The notes below the pieces were generated by a model. It was not told where the DNA came from, did no database searches, and saw nothing but the letters and a program-made list of their open reading frames with translations. 64,000 nucleotides of DNA from a virus. Location: positions 1 through 64,000 of IMG/VR virus record IMGVR_UViG_3300045141_000199. The stretch is one strand, 5' to 3'. Shown piece by piece: positions 1 to 54,812 of the stretch (its first letter is position 1; each line of letters begins with the position of its first letter). The position numbers were made by a program, and so were the translations under genes.

Positions 1-76
1 AAACGCCTGTGGTACGAAGCTCTGCCCCTAATGGCAGGCCAGGCTTAGCGCCAGCGACGTTGCTAAAGTTCACTAA

Positions 77-274
77 ATGGCAATCGAAAAGCAGCCAACC
101 AAGGAACGTAAAAGGGTGTATTTGAGCCCAACTGGCCCCAAAAAGGTCGGCGTTTTGCCGGCCGCGGTGGCCGGACCGACCCGGCCGGTCAAAAAGAACG
201 CCTCCGGAGGCACCAAGAGCCGCCAGATGGCCCGTCCGGCGCAGGGCCGCCCGAACTTGCAATCCACGATCTAA
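77..274 (+). CDS. small basic hypothetical protein (probably leaderless)
   Basis: 65-aa K/R-rich ORF; TGc-TAAAGT extended -10 lies 7 nt before the ATG. Confidence 0.45.
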   Translation: MAIEKQPTKERKRVYLSPTGPKKVGVLPAAVAGPTRPVKKNASGGTKSRQMARPAQGRPNLQSTI

Positions 275-292
275 GGCCGCTATACTGCGAGG

Positions 293-451
293 ATGGAGCT
301 TTTCGTCCTCATCCTCTACTACTGCGTAATCGCCGTCTGCGCCCTGTTTGTGGCAGCTTTGGTTGCGTCCGTCTACTTGATCGTTGCCATCCTCGGCGGG
401 CTCTGGTACCTTGTGGAGCGCGTGAGGGGAAAGACCCCGGCCGCAGACTGA
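293..451 (+). CDS. small membrane protein (52 aa)
   Basis: Hand-translated MELFVLILYYCVIAVCALFVAALVASVYLIVAILGGLWYL...; TATACT 6 nt upstream of the ATG. Confidence 0.55.
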   Translation: MELFVLILYYCVIAVCALFVAALVASVYLIVAILGGLWYLVERVRGKTPAAD

Positions 452-696: not shown

Positions 697-768
697 GGTC
701 CTCCTCCTTTCCGAAGGACAAGCAGCCAGAAAGGCCCGCCCTCCTCATCCCGAGGGCGGGCCTTATTT
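697..768 (+). ncRNA. predicted small RNA carrying anti-Shine-Dalgarno sequence
   Basis: TGc-TATGCT -10 at 683-691; CCTCCTTTC at 703-711 mostly in the loop of a GTCCT/AGGAC hairpin; ends in a 13-bp terminator-like hairpin 731-764. Confidence 0.5.
731..768 (+). terminator. intrinsic terminator-like hairpin
   Basis: aaggcccgccctc / gagggcgggcctt stem followed by attt. Confidence 0.65.
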
Positions 769-786
769 CTGCTACGATCGCCGCCG

Positions 787-1176
787 ATGGCGACGAACAA
801 TCAGCTCGTACGCAAGGGGCGCAAGGCCAAGCACCGGAAAGTCAAGCGGCCTGCGCTGGAAGGCGCTCCGCAGAAGCGCGGCGTCTGCATGCGCGTGTAC
901 GTCATCAAACCGCGCAAGCCGAACTCGGCCTTGCGGAAGGTCGCTCGCGTGCGCCTGGTCAACGGCATGGAGGTAACGGCCGCCGTACCTGGCGAGGGCC
1001 ACAACCTACAGGAGCACTCCGTAGTTCTGTTGAGGGGCGGAAGCGTGCCCGATCTCGGCGGAGTGAACTACAAGGTAATCCGCGGCGTGCTCGATTGCGC
1101 TGGCGTCGCCGATCGCGAGCAGTCGCGCTCGAAGTACGGTAAGAAGAAAGACGAGGCGCGCAAGAAAAAGCGGTGA
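787..1176 (+). CDS. rpsL: 30S ribosomal protein S12 (uS12), divergent phage-borne copy
   Basis: [10 protein letters not shown]...PQKRGVC...[13 protein letters not shown]...[10 protein letters not shown]...RSKYG is colinear with S12; start placed at ATG 787, 8 nt after TGc-TACGAT. Confidence 0.96.
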
Positions 1177-1201
1177 CAGACGGGAGCGTAGAATCGCTCC
1201 C

Positions 1202-2563
1202 ATGCGATTGAAGCGAATCATCGCAGTCATTGCAGGATGTGTCGCCTTCTCGGCAGGCACAGCTCAAGCGGCGGTCCCTGGGCCAGCTCTTTCCGCTGAA
1301 GGCCACTCTTTGAAATGGACGGCCGTAGCTAGCGCTACCCAATATAAGCTCTACGGCTCGTACGAAAATCAGCACGTCGCGTACGTGATCTCGGGCTTAT
1401 CGGCCACACCAAGTGAAATTGTCGGCCAATCCGTGCGCTGGAAAGTCAAAGCAATGGCGCCGGCCGTATCGCGTTGGTCTAATACAGTAACGATCGCTTA
1501 TTCTGAAGGCGAAAGCCAGAAAGAAAAAGAAGAACGCGAAGCTAAAGAAAAAGCTGAACGCGAACAGAAAGAACGTGAAGAAAGAGAACTGAAAGAAAAA
1601 ATCGAACGGGAAGAACGCGAAGCTAAAGAAAAAGAAGAACGAGAAAAAGAACAGACCGGCGAAGCTGGCAAGGTGAAAAACCGCTTAGATGCCAGAACGG
1701 AATACGATGGTATCCCGGTCGAATGGTTTCAGAAACTTACTAGATTATTAGCCTACCCAACGGCCGGCGACCGCTATCCGAAAGCCGGCGTTGAAACCGT
1801 TGCTTATCACGACGCATGGACGACCTGGGGCTCAAGCGGCGCTACTCATAAGAGTGAATACGTAGCCTGGGTTCACCGTGATAAGGAAATCGGCAAATAC
1901 GCCGGCCAATTCATGGACGATATCAACTATGGGCCTAGCGCTGGCAATAAGGCCGGAACGGACGCCCAATACCGTGAATTAGTCGAAGCCGTTCGAGCTG
2001 AGTTAGGGCCGGCCGGCATAATTGAGATGAACTCTCAATACGCCGATATCTGGCCGCAAATCAAGGCTAAAAACCCTGATGTGCTAAAAGCCCTTGAATA
2101 TGTCAATGTTGTTACTAAGGAGTTTAACGTTGATGCCACGTCAGGCATTAACAGCTCTGATAGATACCGAGAATTCATGGAATTCACTGATTTCCTAGAG
2201 AGCAAAAAAATTGGCATTACGATGTCGGGTGACTCGAATCATAATGGCAGCGCCGAACGTGAGTACAGTTTGGCAACTTACTACTTAGTGAATGACGGAC
2301 TAGACTATATCGGATTTGCTAAACAGTCACCATCGAGCCAGTATCCAGGATTACTGCTCAACATCGGCAACGCAACCAGTCCACGCGAACGCTCATCTAG
2401 TGGTGTCTGGAAACGTAGCTTCGCTAAAGGCGTTGCTTACACTGTTGAGCCGGGCGCAGCAACTCAGACGATAACCCTAGCTAAACCAATGAAAAGGCTA
2501 GACGGCACCACAGTTAGCAGCGTAACGTTGGCCCCCGCTAACGGCGCCGTGCTACAATTCTAA
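1202..2563 (+). CDS. secreted protein with E/K coiled-coil linker and putative glycoside hydrolase (GHL15-like TIM barrel) domain
   Basis: Signal peptide ending AQA; EKEERE repeats; FMDDIN and WKRSFAKGV motifs resemble GHL15-type proteins (family recalled, not searched). Confidence 0.55.
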   Translation: MRLKRIIAVIAGCVAFSAGTAQAAVPGPALSAEGHSLKWTAVASATQYKLYGSYENQHVAYVISGLSATPSEIVGQSVRWKVKAMAPAVSRWSNTVTIAYSEGESQKEKEEREAKEKAEREQKEREERELKEKIEREEREAKEKEEREKEQTGEAGKVKNRLDARTEYDGIPVEWFQKLTRLLAYPTAGDRYPKAGVETVAYHDAWTTWGSSGATHKSEYVAWVHRDKEIGKYAGQFMDDINYGPSAGNKAGTDAQYRELVEAVRAELGPAGIIEMNSQYADIWPQIKAKNPDVLKALEYVNVVTKEFNVDATSGINSSDRYREFMEFTDFLESKKIGITMSGDSNHNGSAEREYSLATYYLVNDGLDYIGFAKQSPSSQYPGLLLNIGNATSPRERSSSGVWKRSFAKGVAYTVEPGAATQTITLAKPMKRLDGTTVSSVTLAPANGAVLQF

Positions 2564-5224: not shown

Positions 5225-5888
5225 AAAGAATTTCTCAGTTAGCACGGTGGCGAAAGCCCCTGAACCGCCGACGACGGGCCTCAGCCTGGAAGTTACGGCC
5301 GGTGAGGGCGTACGCTTTCCTACGCCGCCATTCAATGCGGTGGTAGCTCCCGAAAAAGAAATCGCCACGCCCGAAAATGCTGAGGTTATTCGGGTGACGG
5401 CAATTTCTGTGAACAAATTCACGATCGTTCGCAAACAAGAGAGCAGCGTAGCTCAGCCAATAGCGGCCGGCTTCAGGATTTACTCGGGACAAACCGATAA
5501 GGTCCTGAAAGATATCGAAGCTGGCTTGGTTGGACCGGCCGGTCCTACGGGGGCTACTGGCCCGCCCGGAACCGAACTCGCGCTAGGCGTTGCGGTTACA
5601 ACTACCCCGCGGGTTGTTAAAAAAACCGACGCTGGCAAATCACTTGACGTAAACAGCGCCGTAACCGTGACCATCAAGGTCGAACCGTTCGGCGTAGAAG
5701 GCATACCTGAAGGTAGCGTGTTCGAAATTCTGAAACTAGGAACAGGTAAAGTCAAAATCGAATTTGTCAGCCCGGCAACTGCAATTCCCGTTGCTGCGAC
5801 TTACGAACTTAGGGAAACCGGATCGATCGCTGGTCTGCGGAAAATAGATGGAGCGAATAAATGGGCGATCAGCGGAGATTACGTCTAA
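5211..5888 (+). CDS. putative virion fibre protein with short collagen-like stretch
   Basis: N-terminal AEVIRVTAIS...TIVRKQE module; GPAGPTGATGPPG; C-terminal WAISGD. Confidence 0.6.
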   Translation: MPDSRKNFSVSTVAKAPEPPTTGLSLEVTAGEGVRFPTPPFNAVVAPEKEIATPENAEVIRVTAISVNKFTIVRKQESSVAQPIAAGFRIYSGQTDKVLKDIEAGLVGPAGPTGATGPPGTELALGVAVTTTPRVVKKTDAGKSLDVNSAVTVTIKVEPFGVEGIPEGSVFEILKLGTGKVKIEFVSPATAIPVAATYELRETGSIAGLRKIDGANKWAISGDYV

Positions 5889-8089
5889 TGCGCGGCCGTA
5901 GGATTTCAACTGAGCGCGGCAAAGTAGTGAAACCGCCTCCTACGATTTTGCCGCAGGGATTGTACTCATGGGGGTTTGACTACGAGGGGGCGCTCGGCGG
6001 CGGCTACGAGCATTATGGCCAAGGTTTCTCTTTCCCTCAAGGCGTAATCACGGTCGATAAAGTAGTAGACATAGCCTGCGGCGAGCGCCATACGATTGTC
6101 GCCAAAGAAAATGGCGCGATCTACATGTGGGGTACCAAGAGGATTGGTGTTCAAGGCGACGGAGCCGGAACCGACCTAGCTGGCGAAGAATCACAGCCTA
6201 CCCCATTGCAGGTCATGGGCGGGATTCCGTTATGGAAAGACGAATTCTTTGAAGATAAATCGAAACCACCGAAAACATTTGAACTAAAAGAAAGTGAAGC
6301 GCCGGTAGCTCCGCTTATGGCGACTTCCCCAACAAACATTCTTATACCCTGCACGCAAGTTGCGGCCGCCAATATTACTGCCTTTGCTCGTACCGCCGAC
6401 GGTCGCGTGCTGGCGTGGGGTTCGGGCGCAGACGTAGGCTTGCTGGCTAACGGCTGGCACCCGGAACACTCAGAATTTCCCCAGCGTAAATACGAAGCTG
6501 GCAAATTACGGCCGCAGCGCGCCCCATGGTGGGTCCAAACTGGCCCGCCGATTCAGGCCGTAGCTCCTGGTGAAACGAATATCCTCAAAGGTGTCAAGGA
6601 AGTTGCTGCTACTTTCTTCTGCGCGTATTTCCTAAAGGAAAACGGCGAAGTTTGGTATTGCGGTTCACCTACTCAAGTAGAAGACGTTATCTACGCTGAA
6701 CCCGAGCCTCTATGGGCGGCGGAAGGTGATCTTCGCGCTGTAGAAATTGATTGTGGACACGATCAATACACTTTGCGGCTCAATAATGGTGAAGTTCGCG
6801 TAGTCGGCTATTGCAAGGAAGGTATGTGGGGAACCGGAGTCGAAGAGGAAAAAGAACTCAAAAAAAATGTTACTAGGGAAGTCAAGACACCAGAAATTTC
6901 TCCAGGCGTGCCGCTAACTGGCGTGATCCAGATATCACAGGGCCAATACAATGTAAAGGCGCTAAAAAGCGATGGAACCCTCTGGACATGGGGATCGAAT
7001 GGAACTTACCCCGGCAACAACCCAACCGTTTTCAACGATGAACCTTCGCAGGGGCTTGGCGCTCCCATAGAGCGGCCGCCTACAAAGCGGCCGGTTCAGA
7101 TAACCTCGCTAGGAAATCAAGTAAAAGAAATCCGTTGCGGAGGCATGATCCGCGGAACGGGAACTTTCGGGGGCGATGTGTGTATCGCGTTGATGAAAGA
7201 CGAAACCATTAGGACGTGGGGGAAGAACAACGACACCGATACCGGCCCTTCTAACTTTCACGGTCAGGGAACCGGAACTCTTGGCGATACAACCTACGAG
7301 AATAAAGGGGCGCCAACCCCGGTGGCGCTCAGCAACATTACCAAAGTAGAAACTGGACAGGCACATATGGTTGTCGTCCAGCAACCTGGAGCGCCCGCAA
7401 CGCCTACGATAAAAGCGACTATAGCCGGCAAAGTTGTAACGGTCGAATGGGAACCCGTAGCAGGAGCGGCCGGAGAAATGCCAACATGGAGGCTGCCGGA
7501 ATCGTGGGACGTTCTTATTCAACGCCAGGGAGAAAATCCCGCCACGAAAAAATCGGAGGCCGTCCAGCGTAAAAACAAACTGTCTTACGCTACGCGAAGT
7601 CAGGCGTTTACTGTCACGACCGAACCTTGGCCTGGAGCACCTAAAACGTTTGAAATAAGTGTTATCGAGAACGCAAAAGGAGAATCGCCGGCTATTACTA
7701 CGCCTGGTGCGATTCCTTACAGCGGTGATCCAGGGATAGGAATAAACGCAGTTTTGCTTTCGTCGTCGGGAGGCAAACTCAAAGTAGAATGGGCCAACCC
7801 CGTAAAAGAAGAATTAGGCTGGTATGTTGAGTGGCAACGTAACGAAGAATATCTCGACAAAAATGGCAAACTTACGAAAGACAACTTTGTCCGCGAGCCA
7901 GAAATCCAAAACCCGGCAGCGCGCTCATATGAATGGACCCCAACCCCTTCTCCTCACGGCCTTACTACTACACAGTTTGTCGTGGAAGTCTATGGAACCT
8001 TCGGCGGCCGCACAAAGGCCGGCGGATCAAATGAAGATGCAGGCTCGTATAGAAAGCGCGTAGCTTTCATCGAAGTTCCTACCTCGTAA
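5888..8089 (+). CDS. RCC1/BLIP-II repeat beta-propeller protein with C-terminal Fn3-like domains
   Basis: Repeats IACGERHT...GAIYMWG, DGRVLAWG, DGTLWTWG; start placed at the TAATG overlap (5888). Confidence 0.8.
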   Translation: MRGRRISTERGKVVKPPPTILPQGLYSWGFDYEGALGGGYEHYGQGFSFPQGVITVDKVVDIACGERHTIVAKENGAIYMWGTKRIGVQGDGAGTDLAGEESQPTPLQVMGGIPLWKDEFFEDKSKPPKTFELKESEAPVAPLMATSPTNILIPCTQVAAANITAFARTADGRVLAWGSGADVGLLANGWHPEHSEFPQRKYEAGKLRPQRAPWWVQTGPPIQAVAPGETNILKGVKEVAATFFCAYFLKENGEVWYCGSPTQVEDVIYAEPEPLWAAEGDLRAVEIDCGHDQYTLRLNNGEVRVVGYCKEGMWGTGVEEEKELKKNVTREVKTPEISPGVPLTGVIQISQGQYNVKALKSDGTLWTWGSNGTYPGNNPTVFNDEPSQGLGAPIERPPTKRPVQITSLGNQVKEIRCGGMIRGTGTFGGDVCIALMKDETIRTWGKNNDTDTGPSNFHGQGTGTLGDTTYENKGAPTPVALSNITKVETGQAHMVVVQQPGAPATPTIKATIAGKVVTVEWEPVAGAAGEMPTWRLPESWDVLIQRQGENPATKKSEAVQRKNKLSYATRSQAFTVTTEPWPGAPKTFEISVIENAKGESPAITTPGAIPYSGDPGIGINAVLLSSSGGKLKVEWANPVKEELGWYVEWQRNEEYLDKNGKLTKDNFVREPEIQNPAARSYEWTPTPSPHGLTTTQFVVEVYGTFGGRTKAGGSNEDAGSYRKRVAFIEVPTS

Positions 8090-8168: not shown

Positions 8169-8241
8169 GGGGGTTTAGCTCAGTTGGGAGAGCGCCTGTT
8201 TTGCAAGCAGGAAGTCAAGGGTTCGAGTCCCTTATCCTCCA
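8169..8241 (+). tRNA. tRNA-Ala(UGC)
   Basis: Cloverleaf with G3:U70, anticodon TGC. Confidence 0.95.
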
Positions 8242-8243
8242 TC

Positions 8244-8315
8244 GGACGATTAGCTCAGTGGGAGAGCTTTCGGTTTACACCCGGAGAGTCATAGGTTCGA
8301 ATCCTATATCGTCCA
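8244..8315 (+). tRNA. tRNA-Val(UAC)
   Basis: Cloverleaf, loop TT TAC AC. Confidence 0.93.
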
Positions 8316-8319
8316 TAAC

Positions 8320-8394
8320 GGTGAATTAGCTTAGTCCGGGCAAAGCACCCGTCTGATACGCGGGCGATCCAAGGTTCGAATCCTTGATTCACCA
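8320..8394 (+). tRNA. tRNA-Ile(GAU)
   Basis: Cloverleaf, loop CT GAT AC. Confidence 0.93.
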
Positions 8395-8399
8395 CTCTC

Positions 8400-8472
8400 G
8401 GTTCCGTAGCTCAATGGGAAGAGCGTCCGTCTTATATGCGGTCGGTTCTAGGTTCAAGTCCTAGCGGAACTA
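8400..8472 (+). tRNA. tRNA-Ile(UAU)
   Basis: Cloverleaf, loop CT TAT AT. Confidence 0.88.
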
Positions 8473-8476
8473 CTTC

Positions 8477-8549
8477 GCAGCATTAGCTCAGTTGGTAGAG
8501 CGCCACCGTGCCATGGTGGAGATCATGAGTTCGAATCTCATATGCTGCT
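8477..8549 (+). tRNA. tRNA-Gly(GCC)
   Basis: Cloverleaf, loop GT GCC AT, discriminator U. Confidence 0.93.
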
Positions 8550-8554
8550 TACTT

Positions 8555-8628
8555 GCCTCCGTAGCATAATTGGATAGTGTGGCGGACTTTTAATCCGAAA
8601 GATGTGGGTTCGAATCCCACCGGGGGTA
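8555..8628 (+). tRNA. tRNA-Lys(UUU)
   Basis: Cloverleaf, loop CT TTT AA. Confidence 0.9.
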
Positions 8629-8632
8629 CTTC

Positions 8633-8728
8633 GCGTGAGTAGCTGAATTGGCAGAGCGGCCGTCAAAACGTCGCCCCAGCACTGGTTTTTCACACCAGCG
8701 GATGCGGGTTCGAGTCCCGTCTTGCGCA
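8633..8728 (+). tRNA. tRNA-Glu(UUC) with ~23-nt insertion between D and anticodon arms
   Basis: GCGTGAG/CTTGCGC acceptor, CTGGT-TTTTCAC-ACCAG anticodon arm, intact T arm; 96 nt. Confidence 0.75.
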
Positions 8729-8734
8729 CTACAC

Positions 8735-8807
8735 AGGCCGCTAGCTCAACTGGAAGAGCAAGACCCTCTTAAGGTCGAGGTTATGGGTTCGATTCCCATG
8801 CGGCCCA
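8735..8807 (+). tRNA. tRNA-Lys(CUU)
   Basis: Cloverleaf, loop CT CTT AA, A1:C72 mismatch. Confidence 0.88.
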
Positions 8808-8809
8808 TC

Positions 8810-8884
8810 GCACCCATAGCTCAGTGTGAGAGCACCTGCCGTTCTAAGGCAGGAGGTCCGGCGGTTCGATTCCCCGTGGGTGCA
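8810..8884 (+). tRNA. atypical tRNA, anticodon UCU (Arg?) with 6-bp anticodon stem
   Basis: CCTGCC-GTTCTAA-GGCAGG; bulged C in T stem. Confidence 0.7.
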
Positions 8885-8887
8885 TAC

Positions 8888-8960
8888 GCCATCGTAGCTC
8901 AGCCGGTAGAGCACTTCCTTGGTATGGAAGAGGTCCAGAGTTCGATTCTCTGCGTTGGCT
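8888..8960 (+). tRNA. tRNA-Thr(GGU)
   Basis: Cloverleaf, loop TT GGT AT. Confidence 0.93.
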
Positions 8961-8962
8961 TC

Positions 8963-9029
8963 GCCTCCTTTTGTGGCAGCGGACGCGCCTTGTAAGCGTG
9001 GCAGCAGGGTTCGATTCCCTGAGGGGGCT
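8963..9029 (+). tRNA. tRNA-Thr(UGU), shortened D region
   Basis: 67 nt; acceptor, anticodon (CT TGT AA) and T arms intact; only 14 nt in the D region. Confidence 0.8.
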
Positions 9030-9032
9030 TAC

Positions 9033-9104
9033 GCTCTCAAGGTGTTCATGGTGGCATCGCGCTTTCGTAATGCGCAGGATCGAGTTCGAATCTCGATGAG
9101 AGCT
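9033..9104 (+). tRNA. tRNA-Thr(CGU)
   Basis: Cloverleaf, loop TT CGT AA. Confidence 0.87.
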
Positions 9105-9112
9105 TTTACAGT

Positions 9113-9179
9113 GCCTATCGTCGCCGCGTTGACAGTAGACGATGGGCCGCATCCGAGCCATAACGCGGTAAAGCTCGGA
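9113..9179 (+). ncRNA. unclassified kissing-hairpin structured RNA inside tRNA array
   Basis: 10-bp and 7-bp hairpins whose loops are complementary over 9 bp. Confidence 0.6.
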
Positions 9180-9188
9180 CAGAATTTC

Positions 9189-9260
9189 GCAGGAGAGATG
9201 TTACTGGCTGCATATCGGCCTTCCACGCCGAGTGAGCGGGTTCGAGTCCCGTCTCCTGCT
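9189..9260 (+). tRNA. tRNA-Gly(UCC)
   Basis: Cloverleaf, loop CT TCC AC. Confidence 0.9.
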
Positions 9261-9265
9261 TACAA

Positions 9266-9338
9266 GCTGCGATAGCTCAGTTGGTAGAGCTTGCCGTTGA
9301 AGCCGGCAGAGTCGGCGGTTCGAGTCCGTCTCGCAGCA
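9266..9338 (+). tRNA. tRNA-Phe(GAA)
   Basis: Cloverleaf, loop TT GAA GC. Confidence 0.9.
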
Positions 9339-9648
9339 CTTCGATATCTAGATTCTCAGGGCGCATTTGCTCGTTTATCCACGCGTCAAGATTTACTGTT
9401 ATTCGCGCGTGTTGTATTCTTACCCATCGTTGGAACTCGGCCGACTTTGCCATGCGCACAAACGCTTTCTTCTTGTTCTGAAGTTGCGTGCGCTCCTCAC
9501 GCGATTCGCCGCGGGCGCCGCTAGGCGAATGAATTACACGAACTCCTGTGTCCCGCTTGTCTTTATTCTGGCCACCCTTACCTCCGCAGCGGAAGGTCTG
9601 TACTACGCAATCTTTGATCGTGACGGTTAGTATCTTTTCACGCGCCAA
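9277..9648 (-). CDS. stand-alone class I release factor GGQ domain protein (ArfB/RF-1-domain-like peptidyl-tRNA hydrolase)
   Basis: FRCGGKGGQNKDKRDTGVRVIH...REERTQLQNKKKA; no codon-recognition domain. Confidence 0.88.
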   Translation of the reverse strand: MAREKILTVTIKDCVVQTFRCGGKGGQNKDKRDTGVRVIHSPSGARGESREERTQLQNKKKAFVRMAKSAEFQRWVRIQHARITVNLDAWINEQMRPENLDIEVLRDGLEPPTLPASTASSTN

Positions 9649-10249
9649 CGAAAGCCTCTGGTGAATCGGCCTTCAAATGCTCGGGCTCGTAACAGCCGAG
9701 TATGTAGCCATCTAAGAGCGCCTTCAAATTCACGGGGCTGTAATGTGTTTGCTCGACCGACACATTAATCTGGTTGGCGCTAAACGGCGTAAAGTCCTGG
9801 CCCTTTCCGCCATATCCGTTGTTGTGGATATGGCCATGCACGCGAATATAAAACTTGTGGTATTCGTCGTGCTTGAGCGGATAGTGCGCAAAGCTCACAT
9901 GGTAAAGGCGGTTGCCGGCCGTGTAGGGGAGCGCGAACGGCTTTACGATTTTGAAACCGCACTCACGATAAAAGCTGGGGCGCTGCCGATCGTGATTACC
10001 GAGGATCAGATACTTAGGCGAGCCCGTGAGATGTTTCGAGATAACATGCTTGAACAGGCCGTTACTCTTCCAGACGAGATCGCCTAGATGTAAGAGAGCA
10101 GCGTCCGGCGGGACAGCGCTAGCCCATTCCTCCATAACGATCTGCTCATGGTCTGTCGGCCTGTGGCAGTACCCAATGATGTTGTTATGGCCGAAATGTG
10201 AATCAGATGTGATCCATGTGCTCGCTGGATCGATAAGTGGTACGCTCAT
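9638..10249 (-). CDS. calcineurin-like metallophosphoesterase
   Basis: SDSHFGH, HLGD, GNHD, HYP, HGHIH motifs. Confidence 0.9.
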   Translation of the reverse strand: MSVPLIDPASTWITSDSHFGHNNIIGYCHRPTDHEQIVMEEWASAVPPDAALLHLGDLVWKSNGLFKHVISKHLTGSPKYLILGNHDRQRPSFYRECGFKIVKPFALPYTAGNRLYHVSFAHYPLKHDEYHKFYIRVHGHIHNNGYGGKGQDFTPFSANQINVSVEQTHYSPVNLKALLDGYILGCYEPEHLKADSPEAFVGA

Positions 10250-10308
10250 CTAGGAATCATATCATAACTATCTCGGCTGCGCTTGGTTTGTGATATAGTA
10301 TTTAGCTC

Positions 10309-10389
10309 GCTGCGATAGCGAAGTGGACAAACGCGGGTGGCTGTAAACCATCTCCCTCGGGTACCTAGGTTCGAATCCTAGCCGCAGCA
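10309..10389 (+). tRNA. tRNA-Tyr(GUA)
   Basis: Cloverleaf with variable arm, loop CT GTA AA. Confidence 0.92.
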
Positions 10390-10392
10390 TAC

Positions 10393-10476
10393 GGAAGGTG
10401 GCGGGCAGGTGCCCAAACTGGATTTGAACCCCAGGCTACGGCTAGCGTCGTAAGGTTTCGATTACTTCACCTTCCG
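10393..10476 (+). tRNA. tRNA-Ser(UGA), 8/4 cloverleaf
   Basis: 8-bp acceptor GGAAGGTG/CACCTTCC, 4-bp T stem, long variable arm, G73. Confidence 0.82.
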
Positions 10477-10480
10477 CTTT

Positions 10481-10569
10481 GGTTAGTTGGCAGAGAGGCC
10501 GAATGCACTGGTTTGCTAAACCAGCGTGGGACTAAAAGACCACCGAAGGTTCGAATCCTTCACTAACCG
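10481..10569 (+). tRNA. tRNA-Ser(GCU)
   Basis: Cloverleaf with long variable arm, loop TT GCT AA. Confidence 0.92.
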
Positions 10570-10645
10570 CTTAATTCCGCTGTGGGCCACTGGTCTACAG
10601 GCGGGGCGATTTGCCCGCGTTTCGCCTTCAAGCAACCGGGTACAT

Positions 10646-10716
10646 GGCGCAGTGGCCGACTGGTTAGGCGGTTGCCTGCAAAGCTTCTAAATCCGGTTCG
10701 ATTCCGGGCTGCGCCT
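10646..10716 (+). tRNA. tRNA-Cys(GCA)
   Basis: Cloverleaf, loop CT GCA AA, U73. Confidence 0.9.
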
Positions 10717-11049
10717 CTAAATGTCGTCGTAAATCGGTTCAGGCCGATAGCCAATCCGGCGCCGAACGCGATCGAGATTCGGGCAGATAAACGACGGCTC
10801 GCAGCACCCGCCTTCTAAAGCAGTCAACTCGTCAAAGGTCATATCCGGCCGCAGTGGACAAGTACATTGCCTGGCCTCTTGTTCGCGTATCCCCTCTTCA
10901 ATGATTCGACGTATGCCGGCGTCTGAATGGGCTGCCGGCATTGCGTAGGCTGGTTTGTGCTCAGGGCAATTGCGCGGCCGCCTGCCGCGCTTGAGTGGCG
11001 CCTCGTAATCATGATCGCCGATCTCGCAGTAAAGGATTCGCGTGCTCAT
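10717..11049 (-). CDS. Cys/His-rich hypothetical protein
   Basis: Start placed at MSTRILYCEIGDH (ATGA overlap with upstream ORF); CxxxxH...CxxH and further Cys. Confidence 0.6.
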   Translation of the reverse strand: MSTRILYCEIGDHDYEAPLKRGRRPRNCPEHKPAYAMPAAHSDAGIRRIIEEGIREQEARQCTCPLRPDMTFDELTALEGGCCEPSFICPNLDRVRRRIGYRPEPIYDDI

Positions 11050-11216
11050 ACTCGCTCCCAGCCATCGAATCGACTCCTTGCGGGCAAGGCGCCTTTGTCG
11101 CCCTGCTCGCGCAGCAACGTCCAAGCGTCATCATACCCGATCGCGTAAAACTTGCCAGCCGGGGATTCGATCAGCATCCGCGGCCGTGCTTGAATGACTT
11201 CCTTACTTTTAGTCAA
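11046..11216 (-). CDS. small hypothetical protein
   Basis: Hand-translated TTG-start ORF MTKSKEVIQARPRMLIESPAGKFYAIGY..., overlapping both neighbours. Confidence 0.45.
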   Translation of the reverse strand: MTKSKEVIQARPRMLIESPAGKFYAIGYDDAWTLLREQGDKGALPARSRFDGWERV

Positions 11217-12642
11217 TTAACTTCCACGCCCTTTCGTACAGCCACTCGTTAGTGTTTAGCTTCGGTTGAGATAGAACCTCATGCAAAAGTTGACGCTGCA
11301 TCTCGCCGATCGCTCGGCCCTCATAGCCCATTTCGCGGAGTTCGGTTCCGTCGATCGCCAATTCCTTGACGCTGATTGGTACGCCGGCCTTCTGCGCTCG
11401 TACTTGCTCGGCGGCAATCCATGACAGCACTTCCATCGCCTCAGTGATATCTCCGCCCTTGCCAATCACGTCGCATACGCGATGCGTGATTAGATCGCGC
11501 AGTAGCTCATCCCCTAGTTCCGAGCGTAGCCGGCGTATCTTGAACGGACGGATGTTCTCATGCAAGGCGAGCATGTGGCGCTCGATTAGCGTTTTTACGT
11601 CCTGCATTAGACGGTGCGGGGCGTTCAAACGATGCAGGGCTTCATCGGCAAGTTTGGCGCTCCAATACTCATGCGAGTAAAGAGAAGGGACTCCGGCTCC
11701 TAGTTCGACAGCTCGCTTTGGTGCGAGCGCGTAGTAGTGCTGAAGCCCCTCCTCGTCAGTCCACGCCATCGTAGGCTTCCCGCAATCATGGAAAAGTAGC
11801 GCCATACGCACGCGCATGGGCGCGTGGGAGTGCATGTTAGCGGCCGCCTGCACAGCATCAAAGGTATGGTCGCTTGTCGTCTTTTCGTGATAGCGCGAGC
11901 GTTGGTTGTAATCGATCATCGGCGCTAGCTCAGGCAAGAGAATCTGAAGCACGCCAGTTGCGGCCGCTAGTTCAAGAGCGTAACCAGGGCTGGCACCCAT
12001 TAGAATTCCTTCCAGCTCGGTTAGTGCCGTGCCGCTAACTCCCTTTTGAGTCAGGCCAGTCACGGCTCCCGAATGCTCCTGCATTTGGCTATACGCTTCC
12101 GGCGACAGCCGGAAGTGCGGCAGCTTACTGATAAAACGAAGCGCCCGCAGCATCCTAAGTGGGTCTTCCTCGAAAGAGCCGGGGTGTGTCGTGTGAATTA
12201 GCTTTTCGTTGATATCCTTAGCGCCGCCTAGCGGATCGATTAGCGATCCACTGCGAACATCGCGATAAATAGCGTTGATCGTGAAATCGCGTCGCTGGGC
12301 GTCTAGCTCAAGCGGCAGGTTCTCGTTGATAATCATCTCGAAGGCATGCCGCCCATCGCCTGTAGAGCGCTCTGCGCGTGGCAGCACAACCTCAAGCAGG
12401 CCGAGTCCTCGGACCTGCGCCCGGACCCCGATCTGAGGGCCGTTGCCGCGGAGGCGAAGGGAGCCAATCTTGGCTCCTGCGCCCGATAGCGCAGCCGCTA
12501 CGTCCCATAGGGGCGCTCCTCGGACTACGTAATCGGAGTCCTTGCTTTGGCGGCCTAGCAGCTCATCCCGAACCGATCCGCCCACGCGATAGATTTCGGG
12601 AAGGTCGAGAGAGGCCATGAACTGATCGGGAGTCGTGCGCAT
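11209..12642 (-). CDS. cca: class II CCA-adding tRNA nucleotidyltransferase with HD domain
   Basis: VGGSVRD...DSDY, RRDFTINA, EDPLRMLR, LFHDCGK; start placed 6 nt after TGg-TACGAT. Confidence 0.93.
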   Translation of the reverse strand: MRTTPDQFMASLDLPEIYRVGGSVRDELLGRQSKDSDYVVRGAPLWDVAAALSGAGAKIGSLRLRGNGPQIGVRAQVRGLGLLEVVLPRAERSTGDGRHAFEMIINENLPLELDAQRRDFTINAIYRDVRSGSLIDPLGGAKDINEKLIHTTHPGSFEEDPLRMLRALRFISKLPHFRLSPEAYSQMQEHSGAVTGLTQKGVSGTALTELEGILMGASPGYALELAAATGVLQILLPELAPMIDYNQRSRYHEKTTSDHTFDAVQAAANMHSHAPMRVRMALLFHDCGKPTMAWTDEEGLQHYYALAPKRAVELGAGVPSLYSHEYWSAKLADEALHRLNAPHRLMQDVKTLIERHMLALHENIRPFKIRRLRSELGDELLRDLITHRVCDVIGKGGDITEAMEVLSWIAAEQVRAQKAGVPISVKELAIDGTELREMGYEGRAIGEMQRQLLHEVLSQPKLNTNEWLYERAWKLID

Positions 12643-12706
12643 CGCTAAATCGTACCACATCTCGCTAAGTGGCGCTAAGTTATGATATAGTTATCAATCC
12701 AGTTGA

Positions 12707-12777
12707 TGCGGAATCGTCTAAAGGCAGGACCGCGGGCCTTGAACCCGCTTGTCTAGGTTCGAATCCTAGTTCCGCAG
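12707..12777 (+). tRNA. tRNA-Gln(UUG)
   Basis: Cloverleaf with U1:A72, loop CC TTG AA (C33). Confidence 0.9.
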
Positions 12778-12808
12778 CTAACGGGAAGGGTTAAACCTTC
12801 CCGGCCAA

Positions 12809-12879
12809 TGGGGAGTCGTCTAACGGCAAGACGCGCGGCTCTGAATCGTAAAATGTGGGTTCGATTCCTACCTCCCCAG
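12809..12879 (+). tRNA. tRNA-Gln(CUG)
   Basis: Cloverleaf, loop CT CTG AA. Confidence 0.9.
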
Positions 12880-12887
12880 CTTATCGA

Positions 12888-12960
12888 TCTAGCGTGGTGT
12901 CAACGGCAGCACGGTCGGCTGTTAACCGATTAGGTCCAGGTTCGAATCCTGGCGCTAGAG
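12888..12960 (+). tRNA. tRNA-Asn(GUU)
   Basis: Cloverleaf, loop CT GTT AA. Confidence 0.93.
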
Positions 12961-12964
12961 CTTA

Positions 12965-13035
12965 CGGGGTGAAGTGTTATGGCTGCACCGGGCGCTTGGA
13001 ACGCTCTAGTCAGAGTTCAATTCTCTGCTCCCCGA
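12965..13035 (+). tRNA. tRNA-Pro(UGG)
   Basis: Cloverleaf with C1:G72, loop CT TGG AA. Confidence 0.9.
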
Positions 13036-13040
13036 TATCC

Positions 13041-13124
13041 GCCGACATGATGGAATTGGTAGACGTGCTGGTCTTAGAAACCAGTGTCCGCAAGGACGTA
13101 AGGGTTCGAGTCCCTTTGTCGGCA
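13041..13124 (+). tRNA. tRNA-Leu(UAG)
   Basis: Type II cloverleaf, loop CT TAG AA. Confidence 0.93.
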
Positions 13125-13129
13125 TATAA

Positions 13130-13213
13130 GCCTGTGTGGCGGAATTGGTATACGCGGCGGACTTAAAACCCGCTGGTCTTCGGGCCTTTCGAGTTCGAGT
13201 CTCGACACAGGTA
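13130..13213 (+). tRNA. tRNA-Leu(UAA)
   Basis: Type II cloverleaf, loop CT TAA AA. Confidence 0.92.
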
Positions 13214-13216
13214 TAA

Positions 13217-13299
13217 GCGTGAGTGGTGAAACGGTATACACAGCGGGCTCAAATCCCGCCGGTCGGAAGATCATGCGAGTTCGATTCTCGCCTCACGTA
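13217..13299 (+). tRNA. tRNA-Leu(CAA)
   Basis: Type II cloverleaf, loop CT CAA AT. Confidence 0.92.
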
Positions 13300-13303
13300 T
13301 TTC

Positions 13304-13377
13304 CCCTCTATAGCTCAGTGGACAGAGCACCAGGCTACGAACCTGGGTTGTCGTGAGTTCGAATCTCGCTAGGGGGT
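13304..13377 (+). tRNA. tRNA-Arg(ACG)
   Basis: Cloverleaf, loop CT ACG AA. Confidence 0.92.
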
Positions 13378-13382
13378 TACAA

Positions 13383-13456
13383 GCTGCTGTAGCTCAGTTG
13401 GCCAGAGCGTCCGCCTGTCGAGCGGAGAGTCGAGGGTTCGAGTCCCTTCAGTAGCG
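13383..13456 (+). tRNA. tRNA-Asp(GUC)
   Basis: Cloverleaf, loop CT GTC GA, G73. Confidence 0.92.
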
Positions 13457-13458
13457 CT

Positions 13459-13532
13459 GTGACGGATGCCAAAGTGGTCGAGGCGTCAGGTTGTGATCCT
13501 GGCTAGAGCGGGTTCGAGTCCCGTCCGTCACC
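13459..13532 (+). tRNA. tRNA-His(GUG), no encoded G-1
   Basis: Cloverleaf, loop TT GTG AT, C73; base at -1 is T. Confidence 0.9.
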
Positions 13533-13625
13533 CTTCCCTTGCAAAGGAACGGTAGACTGCTTAAAGCAGTTGGCCGCAATGCTGCCGGCGGTCGAGGCTG
13601 AGACGCTTTCACTTGCCGGCATCCA

Positions 13626-13694
13626 GGGAGATAGGTCATGGTGACCAAGCGGATTCCAAACCCGCAGGCGAGCGTTCAATTCGTTCATCTCCCG
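13626..13694 (+). tRNA. tRNA-Trp(CCA), atypical D arm
   Basis: GGGAGAT/ATCTCCC acceptor, GGTCA-TGG-TGACC D arm, loop TT CCA AA. Confidence 0.82.
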
Positions 13695-13698
13695 CTCC

Positions 13699-13766
13699 GG
13701 CTCTGATTTTGGTATTCGACCGCGTTTCATACGCGCGGGATGAAGGTTCGACTCCTTCCAGAGCTA
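13699..13766 (+). tRNA. tRNA-CAU (elongator Met or Ile2), no D stem
   Basis: GGCTCTG/CAGAGCT acceptor, loop TT CAT AC, intact T arm; D region unpaired. Confidence 0.78.
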
Positions 13767-13768
13767 TC

Positions 13769-13840
13769 GCCTCTATAGCTCAGCGGAAGAGCTGCCGCCT
13801 TCTAAGCGGCCGGCCGTGAGTTCGAATCTCACTAGGGGCT
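13769..13840 (+). tRNA. tRNA-Arg(UCU)
   Basis: Cloverleaf, loop CT TCT AA. Confidence 0.93.
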
Positions 13841-13843
13841 TTC

Positions 13844-13916
13844 GTCCTTGTAGCTCAGCGGATAGAGCATCAACCTCCTAAGTTGATGGCCGTGGGTTCG
13901 ATTCCCACCAAGGACT
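13844..13916 (+). tRNA. tRNA-Arg(CCU)
   Basis: Cloverleaf, loop CT CCT AA. Confidence 0.93.
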
Positions 13917-13987
13917 TGCGGCGAAGTGGTCTGGTGACCATTCGAGCCTCATAAGCTTGAGAGGGTGGTTCAATTCCCCCGCCGCCA
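13917..13987 (+). tRNA. initiator-like tRNA-fMet(CAU), atypical
   Basis: 1:72 mismatch, loop CT CAT AA, TTCAA T loop, 6-bp D stem with TGGT tetraloop. Confidence 0.78.
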
Positions 13988-13988
13988 C

Positions 13989-14063
13989 GCAGGGGTCTAC
14001 TAACTGGCCTAAGTGCCGACGTTCTCAGCGTCGATGATGCGGGTTCGAATCCCGTCCCCTGTA
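13989..14063 (+). tRNA. tRNA-Glu(CUC)
   Basis: Cloverleaf, loop TT CTC AG. Confidence 0.85.
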
Positions 14064-14068
14064 CTCAG

Positions 14069-23285: not shown

Positions 23286-24959
23286 ATGGCAAGACTCATC
23301 AAAAAAGGACTTGAAGGACCACCGGGGCCAGAAGGAGCCACGGGCGAAAAAGGTGAAAAAGGTCTAACGGGATCGACCGGCCCCGAAGGGCCGCCGGGCG
23401 CTACCGGCGAAAAAGGTGAAAAAGGAACTACTGGTGCGACCGGAGCAACCGGCTCGACTGGACCTGAAGGACCGACTGGTGCTACCGGCTCGACCGGACC
23501 TGCGGGTTCGACTGGAGCCACGGGGGCCACTGGCGCGACCGGAGCTGAAGGCCCACGGGGGGAAATGCTATGGCGGGGCGTCTGGTCGTCCGGCACCACT
23601 TACGCTAAAGGTGATGCTGTAGAAGAAGGTGAAAGTTCGTATATCGCGATTAAAAGCGGAAATACCAACCACAAACCTAGTTTATTAGGTGAATGGTGGG
23701 AATTAGTCGCTAAGAAGGGCGCCACGGGAGCGACTGGAGCAACGGGTTCTACGGGAGCAACAGGAGCTACCGGCGAAAAAGGTGAAAAAGGAACAACGGG
23801 CTCGACCGGGCCTGAAGGTCCAGCCGGCGCAACGGGAGCTACCGGCGCGGCTGGGGCTACCGGAGCTGAAGGTCCGCGTGGAGAAATGCTATGGCGTGGC
23901 GTTTGGTCTTCTGGCACAACCTATGCCAAAGGCGATGCTGTAGAGGAAGGCGAAAGCTCGTACATCGCCATCAAAAGCGCCAACACCAACCATAAACCTA
24001 GCGAACTTGGTGAATGGTGGGAACTAATTGCTAAAAAGGGTGCGGCCGGCGCTACGGGCGCCACTGGTGCTACGGGGGCAACGGGAGCCACAGGCGAAAA
24101 AGGTGAAAAAGGTACAACGGGCTCGACTGGAGCCGAAGGCGCGGCAGGAGCAACGGGCGCTAAAGGCGAAGGAACGTGGCAAGGCGTATGGTCATCTGGC
24201 ACAACTTACGCCAAAGGTGACATAGTTGAAGCAGGTGAATCATCTTACATCGCCATAAAATCTGCCAACACCAACCATTCACCGGCCTCCCTTGGTGAAT
24301 GGTGGGAACTAGTAGCTAAAAAGGGTGCTACCGGAGCAACGGGCGCGACTGGCCCTACGGGTGCAGAAGGCCCAACCGGAGCAACGGGAGCTAAAGGCGA
24401 AGGTAAATGGGAAGGCGTTTGGTCTAGCGGCACAACCTACACTAAAGGCGATCTTGTAGAAGAAGGCGAATCATCCTACATTGCCATTAAAAGCGCGAAC
24501 TTGAACCACAAACCTTCATCCCTAGGGGAATGGTGGGCGCTTGTCGCTAAAAAGGGCGCTACTGGCGCGACCGGCTCTGCGGGGTCTACAGGATCGACCG
24601 GCCCCGAAGGCCCAGCGGGAGCTTCAACTAAACCGCTGATTGCAATGTCCTTTGCAATCAAAGGTGAACTACTGGAAACGACTTACCCCGGCCGCTTCAT
24701 CCGTATAACAGGTTCGGAAGAACTAGAACTTGTAGCCATTTACGCTGAACTTGGAGCTGGCACCAGTGCAGTCGTTACGTTGAAAAAGAACGGCTCAGAA
24801 GCTACAGGCTTCAAAGGCACGATCAAAAAAGAATTTTTCTCAGTGACTCCTACCGGAATCGCTCTCGCGGACAAAGACAGGCTTGCTATCAGCGTTGCGA
24901 CCGCGACAGAAAAACCCGGCGATCTCACGTTTACCGTCTTTATCAAGCAGTTGAAATAA
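23286..24959 (+). CDS. collagen-like fibre with four CBM5/12-like repeats
   Basis: G-X-Y triplets alternating with 4x [29 protein letters not shown]...GEWWxLxAKKG. Confidence 0.85.
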
Positions 24960-53353: not shown

Positions 53354-53823
53354 AGCGGAATATTAATCAGATTTTCAGAACCACATTCAGCGCAAATTTT
53401 GCGATGACCACTACCATGGCGTGTATGTCTTATCTGTAGATTCTCGATTTGATTATCCTCCGTATTTCCGTTGATGTGGTGAACTTCCTCAGTAGAGACT
53501 AGAGGGCGCCCTAAATGCCGCGCCATTATCAATCTGTGCTCAGCCACACGATTCGTTTGTCTATTAATAGTTTTTGCGGACATGATGTGCATAGGATCGT
53601 CTGGTGCAACCCAAACATACCAATACTTTCCCTGTTTTGTTCTTCCCCCTGTCCAGCAATGATGTTGAGATGCCTGTTTTGGGCCGCGGGGTTTTAATTG
53701 ACGTATTTGAAGGTTTTGGTACAACGACCGATGAGTAAAACCGTACTCGTCTTCGAGATCGCAAACAGATTCCCCCTGAAAATAGCGTGGCAGTATCTCA
53801 TCCCAGGGATAGCGAGCGTTCAT
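53350..53823 (-). CDS. HNH homing endonuclease
   Basis: EHRLIMARHLGRPL...VHHINGNTEDNQIENL. Confidence 0.88.
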   Translation of the reverse strand: MNARYPWDEILPRYFQGESVCDLEDEYGFTHRSLYQNLQIRQLKPRGPKQASQHHCWTGGRTKQGKYWYVWVAPDDPMHIMSAKTINRQTNRVAEHRLIMARHLGRPLVSTEEVHHINGNTEDNQIENLQIRHTRHGSGHRKICAECGSENLINIPL

Positions 53824-54812
53824 TTAGGATTACCAATAGGACAAGAAGCACTAATGAATGGAGCCATAAGAGGATCGTCACAGCCTGTGCTCACAAATTT
53901 ACCACGTTCAGCATTACTAAGAATACGCTTTAATTCTGAGTCAGTTACATGTGACACTCCCTGCTGGTCAGCAGAATCACGTACTAATTTCATCATATAA
54001 AGAGCTTCTTCTCGGTCGCAAGCTTCCCAATTAGCAAGCATCTTTGCTAAGCAGAAATACACCACATTGCGATGTCCCTCACTAACGGGCACTTCATCAC
54101 GGCGCGCAATAATTTCCTGGCCGCAGATATGTAAATCTGAAGCAGTTCCAAACTCAGCAGCCTCATGTTCGCGCTCCTCGGGCGGAGCGATCATTAACCA
54201 ATCGGCGCGCTTACGCCACTCGATCGGACTATTAAGTTCCTTCATCGCTGCTCGTACGAACATCTCTAGGGTTACTTCGCCTAGCGGCGTTGGAAGGCCG
54301 CTCGGACGCGGCAAGGTACCGCCGTCAAGAGTCGGGATTAGTATCGGACGGGCCTCGCCATGATATGGCAGGTTGATGTAGTTACCAAACATGCCGGCCA
54401 GTAAACGATTTTGCTTAGGAAAGCACTCAACCGTTGGTTTACCTATGCCGGCGATGGCCTCCCGCATGATTCCTCGCGGAATCCACGCATCAATAGGCTC
54501 TTCGAAGAAGGCCCAAATGTGCGCATTTCCAGACCTTGAGCGCTCAATGAACGTATGTCCGAATTTCAAGAACTTTTGCAGCTCGCGAGCAGCATCAAAG
54601 TCAGGCTCATCTAAGTCGATCGCAGCAAACCACACCTTGCCGTTGTCGAGCAGCGGGGCTATGCCTAGACCGGGACCTATGCCTTGAAGGTGATTTTCAT
54701 AGACATAGCGCCGCGGAGGCTTCTTTATCCACCGGCCTTCGCCAGTTCCATAAGCATCCTGGCGACCGCGGAATAACCTCATATAAGTATCAACCATATT
54801 GTCGGTTATCAC
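53820..54812 (-). CDS. archaeo-eukaryotic-type primase
   Basis: FRGRQDAYG, IDLD, ERSRSGNAHIW, FPKQ, GNYINLP, HRN motifs. Confidence 0.85.
   Translation of the reverse strand: MITDNMVDTYMRLFRGRQDAYGTGEGRWIKKPPRRYVYENHLQGIGPGLGIAPLLDNGKVWFAAIDLDEPDFDAARELQKFLKFGHTFIERSRSGNAHIWAFFEEPIDAWIPRGIMREAIAGIGKPTVECFPKQNRLLAGMFGNYINLPYHGEARPILIPTLDGGTLPRPSGLPTPLGEVTLEMFVRAAMKELNSPIEWRKRADWLMIAPPEEREHEAAEFGTASDLHICGQEIIARRDEVPVSEGHRNVVYFCLAKMLANWEACDREEALYMMKLVRDSADQQGVSHVTDSELKRILSNAERGKFVSTGCDDPLMAPFISASCPIGNPK

Follow-up and report, generated by a model that had tools for sequence, protein, structure and literature searches.

Why would a tailed phage carry its own copy of ribosomal protein S12 (uS12), and what could the unusual residues in its decoding loops be for? 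This question is raised by a stand-alone rpsL coding sequence at positions 787–1176 (plus strand; 129-codon open frame ending in the stop TGA at 1174–1176; 129-aa product P0001) of the IMG/VR virus record IMGVR_UViG_3300045141_000199. The window analysed here comprises the first 64 kb of this 89,773-bp record, which is classed as linear and rated 74% complete by CheckV. An initial annotation, made from the sequence alone, had proposed that the phage swapped a decoding protein to retune fidelity, to accept its own transfer RNAs (tRNAs) or to resist aminoglycosides. Our analysis confirmed that the gene is a genuine, intact, stand-alone and full-length uS12 gene on a phage genome. For its role we favour, with confidence somewhat better than even, the interpretation that an rpsL of the host lineage was captured by the phage, is kept under constraint, and supplies S12 that is built into the 30S subunits made during infection.

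P0001 exceeded the cutoffs of two family models over its full length, Pfam PF00164 (4e-36, 123.5 bits, cutoff 22.3) and the NCBIfam equivalog TIGR00981 rpsL_bact (192.9 bits, cutoff 112.95, model positions 1–123 of 124), which places it in the bacterial uS12 (rpsL) family. In phmmer comparisons with PDB chains, its alignments to solved S12 proteins contained no gaps and kept the register (best E 5.6e-50). Relative to the chain set u533, which we take to be E. coli S12 and which served as reference for residue differences, P0001 carries K43R, R86S, K88P, P91G and R94N when counted from Met = 1. In mature numbering these are K42R, R85S, K87P, P90G and R93N, in exact agreement with the initial annotation, and the PNSA loop, H77 (mature H76) and D89 (mature D88) are retained as it had stated. 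The N-terminal arm that threads through ribosomal RNA (rRNA) and the modification site at D88 are likewise intact, and the protein carries a Lys/Arg-rich basic C-terminal extension. P0001 is the single S12 match in the whole record. Like other S12 proteins, it would be expected to take its place at the decoding centre of the 30S subunit.

The distribution of changes along the protein was assessed against 79 distinct, diverse metagenome S12 sequences, in which 78 positions were at least 90% conserved. The phage protein differs at 10 of these 78 positions (T35M, T39V, T41K, K43R, Y66A, I67V, R86S, K88P, P91G and R94N; Met = 1), leaving 68 intact; one more difference, the eleventh, falls in a column of the tail. 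Each of the 10 changed positions is inside segment 35–43, 66–67 or 86–94, which belong to the decoding centre (post-hoc hypergeometric 1.7e-7). Streptomycin sites known from the literature were changed in 4 of 8 cases, compared with 6 of 69 other conserved positions (Fisher p 0.008). A second S12, P0005, is 96% identical to P0001; the two differ at 5 of 129 residues (A14P, K20R, A27S, S113A and K126R), none of them within the conserved core. At the protein level, the pattern agrees with an S12 that works under constraint and has an altered decoding face, and it does not agree with a pseudogene in decay.

The surroundings of the gene are those of a phage genome. The record encodes portal, major capsid protein, head-tail adaptor, tail proteins and large terminase, and furthermore a family-A DNA polymerase (PolA), ribonucleotide reductase, an SNF2 helicase, a primase domain and a CCA-adding tRNA nucleotidyltransferase. 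After a 25-nt spacer, rpsL is followed by a gene for a secreted Glu/Lys-rich coiled-coil protein and then by tail-fibre-like genes, and it does not head a str operon, in which rpsL precedes rpsG and fusA. Concordantly, tblastn gave zero matches to S7 and elongation factor G (EF-G) across the 89,773 bp, and the EF-Tu/EF-G GTPase domain PF00009 gave none in the record, which bears out the earlier observation that rpsG, fusA and tuf are missing downstream. By tblastn, rpsG and fusA followed rpsL in 7 of 7 cellular or contaminant loci (L002, L003, L221, L222, L092, L182 and L097); L006 has the order rpsL-rpsG-fusA in its list of open reading frames (ORFs), and contig L031 stops at an MPRR start just past rpsL. 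In the Logan assembly of run X1, one 2,532-bp contig corresponds to positions 356–2887 with 0 differences at a depth of 7.43, the neighbouring contigs having depths of 4.7–7.3. This contig bridges rpsL to phage genes, which speaks against the chimeric joining of host DNA considered by the initial annotation. P0005 is encoded on a separate Logan contig of 88,116 bp. Phage genes, bridging contig and P0005 together identify a bona fide viral genome, with residual doubt attached to the GC-rich block at the contig end. Neither a tyrosine integrase (PF00589) nor a serine recombinase (PF00239) was detected in the record, and the tailed phage is apparently lytic. No terminal repeat joining the two contig ends was found. 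Logan depth falls from 7.4 to 3.2 at about 356–379 and both assemblies stop at about position 1–2; the fall within window positions 1–379 may reflect a branch of the assembly graph, such as a genome end, a permutation point or a strain variant.

A search with P0008 delineated an alternative type of S12, hereafter alt type, with the motifs [K/R]RPAL, PRKPNSA, A-[A/S]-IPGEGH and DLGG[I/V]SYKV. Its members are P0126–P0137, P0008, P0009, P0042, P0124 and P0246, and their traits are R21, K42R, replacement of the otherwise invariant Y65 by A or S, P90G, S93 and non-canonical residues at 85 and 87. Alt-type contigs include those of P0130 (2,266,265 bp, NCBI), P0127 (766,267 bp), P0136 (431,956 bp) and P0246 (223,531 bp). 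P0136 corresponds to MBS1868371.1, labelled as a metagenome-assembled genome (MAG) of an ‘Actinobacteria/Actinomycetota bacterium’, and P0137 to MEA2410051.1, labelled ‘Thermoleophilaceae bacterium’. The phage S12 is 70.5–73.8% identical to alt-type proteins and at most 75% identical to any cellular S12 retrieved. The initial annotation had allowed that the same residues might be the norm in the host lineage, and this turned out to be largely so: K42R, loss of Y65, P90G and altered residues at 85, 87 and 93 all occur in this clade from cellular contigs. Most of the ‘rewired’ residues thus appear to be inherited from an odd bacterial S12 lineage and not to be phage inventions. Residues absent from 16 alt-type proteins include V39, I40, K41, V58, V67, V87, P88 and N94 of the phage S12 (Met = 1), and three of these, I40, V58 and V87, are common to P0085. 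The phage-specific set therefore reads T38V, T39I, T40K, I66V, K87P and N93 in mature numbering, plus the basic tail. Four further sequences (P0002, P0003, P0004 and P0125), about 200 aa long with an internal partial duplication of S12 and located on contigs of 0.9–1.7 kb, are probably assembly artefacts and were left out of counts and trees.

A careful IQ-TREE analysis, run on 55 S12 sequences, united 16 alt-type proteins with the phage pair and P0085/P0247 in a 20-row clade with a support of 98/97. The base of this clade is not resolved, and the phage stem of 0.30 is comparable to the stems of other subgroups. An earlier quick tree of 188 rows had nested the group in a 42-row clade of actinobacterial-type S12 (support 97). 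When the 24 columns carrying the traits (positions 2, 21, 35–44, 66–67 and 85–94) were dropped, a constrained 20-row clade was not rejected (p-AU 0.644), its log-likelihood being 8.76 above that of the free quick tree. The other columns are thus compatible with the 20-row grouping, which nevertheless rests mainly on the trait columns. Taken together, the shared traits and the careful tree point to a derivation of the phage gene from or near this unusual cellular S12 clade.

Are such residues exceptional among cellular S12 proteins? The initial annotation had called the loops near-invariant, and within the 79 metagenome sequences this holds, the five noted positions (mature 42, 85, 87, 90 and 93) being 92–100% conserved. 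However, a degenerate DNA pattern encoding HNLQEH...DL[G/A]G retrieved at least 120 cellular genomes with G or A at P90. Among the 118 loci parsed of the 120 listed (L084–L203), 98 combine R43 with G or A at 91 (Met = 1), and Y66 is kept in 118 of 118. The pattern occurs in Paenibacillus, Lysinibacillus, Saccharibacillus, Saccharibacteria, Spirochaetia and soil Actinomycetota MAGs, including a Gaiellales MAG whose locus L182 reads PRKPNSA and GGGPADLGGVNYR. The variant protein was the sole S12 match in 5 of 5 pattern genomes checked and heads rpsL-rpsG-fusA in 3 of 3 tested. In the class of the Gaiellales MAG, 146 of 151 genomes have one S12 each, with a best identity to P0136 of 78%, and the best loci are canonical (10 newly fetched, L223–L232, and 4 read before). 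S12 was also found in 380 of 401 sampled Actinomycetota genomes, where identity to P0001 reached 74% at best and each of the 12 best loci was canonical. Both this 401-genome sample and that searched for the alt-type DNA pattern include 15 unpublished genomes (G273, G179, G231, G053, G348, G323, G006, G125, G093, G087, G244, G023, G153, G341 and G396), which entered the counts only, no locus being read from them. A metagenome S12 scan returned, among the matches listed, canonical or mildly variant S12 only and none of the alt type.

Several of the altered positions are known from streptomycin resistance. Passages of PMC9456066 report K42R and P90G as streptomycin resistant and R85 and K87 as sites of resistance or pseudo-dependence, in agreement with the initial annotation, which had named 42, 85, 87 and 90 as streptomycin sites. 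In the rpsL allele descriptions available from PMC9456066 and PMC4182516, K42R, K87R/E and P90A/C/G are resistant and R85C/H pseudo-dependent, and the tables of PMC4182516 give a minimum inhibitory concentration (MIC) of >1,024 ug/ml and a fitness of 0.97 for K42R in Klebsiella. P0001 thus carries resistance-type substitutions among K42, K87 and P90 through K42R and P90G.

Upstream of rpsL, the hexamer TACGAT (773–778, plus strand) was read from the sequence as a candidate -10 element 8 nt 5’ of the ATG, with no Shine-Dalgarno motif in between. Leaderless starts are common in Actinomycetota. TANNNT motifs 5–9 nt before the start were present in 14 of 118 ORFs versus 4.8% of random positions, and Shine-Dalgarno-like motifs in 43 of 118 ORFs versus 12%; leaderless starts are therefore plausible in this phage. 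Of the leaderless promoter assigned to rpsL by the initial annotation, the TACGAT element and the missing Shine-Dalgarno motif stand, whereas a sigma-70 scan called no promoter at this site, so that the proposal is plausible only. Directly upstream of the gene, a three-hairpin element resembling a small RNA (sRNA), with C/U-rich, CCUCC-like loops, spans about 628–768 on the plus strand. The 628–770 region is predicted to fold with -81.4 kcal/mol (z -7.86), and 628–768 has weak Rfam matches below gathering to ar14 (37 bits, gathering 58.8, E 6.5e-5), sX13 and CcsR1, which are CCUCC-motif sRNAs. The element ends in a terminator-like GC-rich hairpin with a T-rich tail (731–764, plus strand; 13 pairs, 10 of them G-C), called by a terminator scan in agreement with the fold. 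Between the rpsL stop and the next ATG at 1202, a further hairpin, GGGAGCG-TAGAAT-CGCTCCC (1182–1201, plus strand), could constitute a 3’ stem-loop of rpsL and/or a -10-like TAGAAT 7 nt before the 1202 start, which the TANNNT survey flags.

Apart from rpsL, the window contains further translation genes. ARAGORN predicted 32 tRNA genes in two blocks (8169–14064, plus strand), and the gene for the CCA-adding enzyme (11209–12660, minus strand; phrog_2244 tRNA nucleotidyltransferase, 5.5e-60; PF01743) lies between the blocks. One of the tRNAs, tRNA-Thr(tgt) at 8963–9029, is merely 67 nt long, with its anticodon at position 29. The gene next to rpsL (1202–2563, plus strand) encodes a 453-aa protein whose N-terminus resembles a signal peptide and which contains a long repeat region rich in Glu and Lys; no Pfam model scored above cutoff. 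Beside the tail-fibre-like genes, 5861–8089 (plus strand) encodes an RCC1-repeat (beta-propeller) protein, and 23286–24959 (plus strand) a collagen-repeat tail fibre carrying a CBM5/12 carbohydrate-binding module. Inside the replication module, 53820–54812 (minus strand) encodes a 330-aa protein with a match to PF22548, the archaeo-eukaryotic primase domain of the TOTE conflict system (1.3e-19). A host call from capsid and polymerase was rejected: the best cultured-phage matches listed are merely 24–28% identical, PolA leaning weakly to actinobacteriophages.

In the mechanism that we favour, rpsL would have been captured from or near an uncultured Actinomycetota lineage whose own S12 already departs from the norm at the decoding face (K42R, P90G, A or S in place of Y65, and variable residues at 85, 87 and 93). 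The phage copy would have gained T38V, T39I, T40K, I66V, K87P and N93 beside the same loops, together with the Lys/Arg-rich tail. Its own -10 element would drive a leaderless transcript, and the protein would enter 30S subunits assembled during infection; newly assembled subunits are the expected point of entry because S12 is not named, in the main text of the survey of viral ribosomal proteins discussed below, among those exchanging on mature ribosomes. Within these subunits it may maintain or slightly shift decoding toward phage protein synthesis, along with the 32 tRNAs and the CCA-adding enzyme. The data show what the gene is, where it comes from and that it is constrained; that it is expressed, that its product joins 30S subunits and that fidelity or drug sensitivity might change as a result is what we infer.

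Several observations weigh against this interpretation. The alt type is known here only from its proteins and the sizes of its contigs. Its DNA pattern occurred in 0 of the 401 sampled Actinomycetota genomes, which together with the best cellular identity of 74% implies that the exact donor is not among them. A free quick search without the 24 trait columns no longer recovers the 20-row clade, and convergence at linked sites may have contributed to the grouping. On the phage side, rpsL lies only 786 nt from the contig end, and the first 1.2 kb have a GC content of about 64%, compared with 54% for the genome and 48–58% for the rest of the window; such a block at a contig end would also be expected if the flank were host DNA or the capture very recent. 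The Logan bridge is not independent, since run X1, a soil metagenome, probably represents the source sample. P0005 is known from its protein alone, its contig being phage-like by size only, and no RNA run was listed as containing the rpsL stretch.

These points bear first of all on whether the gene belongs to the phage. If positions 1 to about 1200 were bacterial, with a host rpsL joined to a prophage or mis-assembled, the high GC of this block would be accounted for, as would the position of the gene at the end of a ‘linear’, 74% complete record, the GC content at third codon positions (GC3) of S12, which is the highest of 119 ORFs (0.81; mean 0.59, sd 0.09), and the grouping of the phage protein in one clade with cellular S12. 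Reads of many other organisms also stack on 801–1200 (depths 183 and 55), which makes k-mer cross-talk conceivable. However, a second assembler spans 356–2887 without differences at the depth of phage genes, the sole drop in depth lying upstream, and this rpsL precedes coiled-coil and tail-fibre-like genes whereas the tested cellular ones precede rpsG and fusA. Moreover, integrase and recombinase domains are missing from the record, several other ORFs at 64–84 kb likewise reach a GC3 of 0.70–0.80, and a 96% identical S12 recurs on a contig of near-equal size. We regard a host flank or chimera as quite unlikely. The host-like GC3 could also mark a neutral passenger, that is a recently captured host rpsL which has no role in infection and awaits loss, and the position at the genome edge beside other small high-GC genes agrees with this, as does the fact that S12 stands outside the exchangeable ribosomal proteins usual in viruses, as far as these are named in the main text of that survey. 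A gene awaiting loss would hardly be intact on two phage-sized contigs at 4% divergence of S12 with every difference outside the conserved core, nor would it keep 68 of 78 conserved positions without degradation of the core; at least 26% divergence from every cellular S12 seen is, in addition, hard to square with very recent capture from a sampled lineage. A passenger is an unlikely, though not a negligible, explanation.

Provided that the gene is viral and functional, its function could differ from that favoured here. The initial proposal, in which the phage installs a streptomycin-resistant or altered-fidelity S12 to translate under aminoglycoside stress, rightly recognised a real gene with changes in the decoding segments, and it draws on the resistance substitutions K42R and P90G, on the resistance or pseudo-dependence sites R85 and K87, on the high MIC at little cost in fitness of K42R in Klebsiella, and on the origin of the sample from soil, the home of aminoglycoside producers. 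The same states are shared with a cellular clade, though; since the donor clade and many bacteria have them natively, they need not be phage adaptations. Streptomycin sensitivity is dominant over resistance where both alleles or ribosome types coexist, and pre-existing host ribosomes would persist in the infected cell, which weighs against the aminoglycoside idea. Since the states appear ancestral to the clade and sensitivity is dominant, aminoglycoside-proof translation is unlikely as the selected function, and among the readings considered we give this one very little credence. An extraribosomal role, in which the protein would serve as an RNA chaperone, or else as a decoy or antidote against a host defence or toxin sensing S12 or the decoding site, would suit the location of the phage-specific changes on the exposed decoding face and the added basic tail. 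In E. coli, S12 acts as an RNA chaperone on introns of phage T4, and tRNAs plus a CCA-adding enzyme may be cargo of the kind used against tRNA-targeting defences. Yet the whole rRNA-binding arm and the core are conserved as in a working S12, which a role off the ribosome would not need, and a defence or toxin partner has not been identified; we consider such a role improbable. A more far-reaching version of the ribosomal interpretation is that the phage builds a ribosome class of its own. A uS12 with VIK at 38–40, P87 and N93 on the K42R/P90G background would then give new 30S subunits favouring the 32 tRNAs and leaderless mRNAs, and the C/U-loop RNA would mask host Shine-Dalgarno sequences, the whole forming a translation-takeover module. 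This seems rather doubtful to us; if true, it would describe a takeover module centred on a core decoding protein, not on a peripheral exchangeable one.

Under the favoured interpretation of a captured and constrained rpsL, uS12 probably acts only via new 30S assembly, which would imply that ribosomes go on being made, and that this matters, while slow-growing soil Actinomycetota are infected. Independently of the phage, the uncultured actinobacterial S12 clade goes beyond the combination of K42R with P90A/G in that Y65 is lost. Furthermore, K42R and P90A/G, the ‘classic’ streptomycin-resistance states, are wild type in many bacterial lineages, which matters for the reading of rpsL variants in resistome surveys.

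How does this gene compare with other viral records and with known systems? In IMG/VR, 43 stretches matched the peptide patterns and only 2 encode S12 relatives; both of these other S12 contigs carry a canonical S12 followed by rpsG and fusA, which identifies them as host DNA. The GenBank phage set contained 19 records with an S12 match, at no more than 67.8% identity. Two of the 19 were inspected (H4 and H8) and both have rpsL-rpsG-fusA, H4 with host genes such as fabB and H8 labelled UNVERIFIED_ORG. We found no report of a phage uS12 in the literature, where the full list of Mizuno et al. 2019 (13–14 viral ribosomal proteins, in a figure or supplement) could contain one. The exchangeable ribosomal proteins that the main text of that survey (PMC6375957) describes as enriched in viruses are bS21, bL12, bL9, bL31 and bL33, in line with the remark of the initial annotation that the usual phage ribosomal proteins are others, such as bS21 and bL12. 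The proteins named there comprise these five and bS6, uS9, uS15, eS30 and HPF, and S12 or uS12 has 0 occurrences in this main text. Passages of Al-Shayeb et al. 2020 (PMC7162821) name S4, S1, S21 and L7/L12; this article has two word-start matches to ‘S12’, neither within the passages behind this comparison.

Like the virus-encoded ribosomal proteins in the consulted parts of PMC6375957 and PMC7162821, the phage S12 is a single cellular ribosomal protein gene fixed beside translation cargo, and its presumed role, too, would be to tweak host ribosomes. It differs in that the enriched viral proteins are loosely bound and exchangeable, a property with which S12, a core protein of the decoding centre missing from the names in the main text of PMC6375957, does not agree. 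With the canonical rpsL of the str operon (rpsL-rpsG-fusA-tuf) the phage gene shares membership in the TIGR00981 equivalog, the E. coli register, PNSA, H76 and D88, whereas rpsG, fusA and tuf are missing, 10 conserved positions are changed and a basic C-terminal extension is present. The positions altered are the same as in rpsL alleles of streptomycin-resistant laboratory and clinical strains, K42R and P90G matching such alleles exactly, but in the phage and the alt type these are natural, lineage-wide states accompanied by further changes, which in the phage are R85S, K87P and R93N. With the alt-type S12 of uncultured Actinomycetota the phage protein has in common R21, K42R, P90G, the replacement of Y65 by A or S and non-canonical residues at 85, 87 and 93, but the alt type has TTT at 38–40 (mature) where the phage has VIK, and V66, P87 and N93 are likewise peculiar to the phage. 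Altogether, the gene is best regarded as adding uS12 to the virus-encoded ribosomal proteins, a known class of which it is an atypical member because its product belongs to the decoding core. Since the phage members of this class are so far mostly peripheral and exchangeable, a conserved, stand-alone uS12 would extend their repertoire to the core of the decoding centre.

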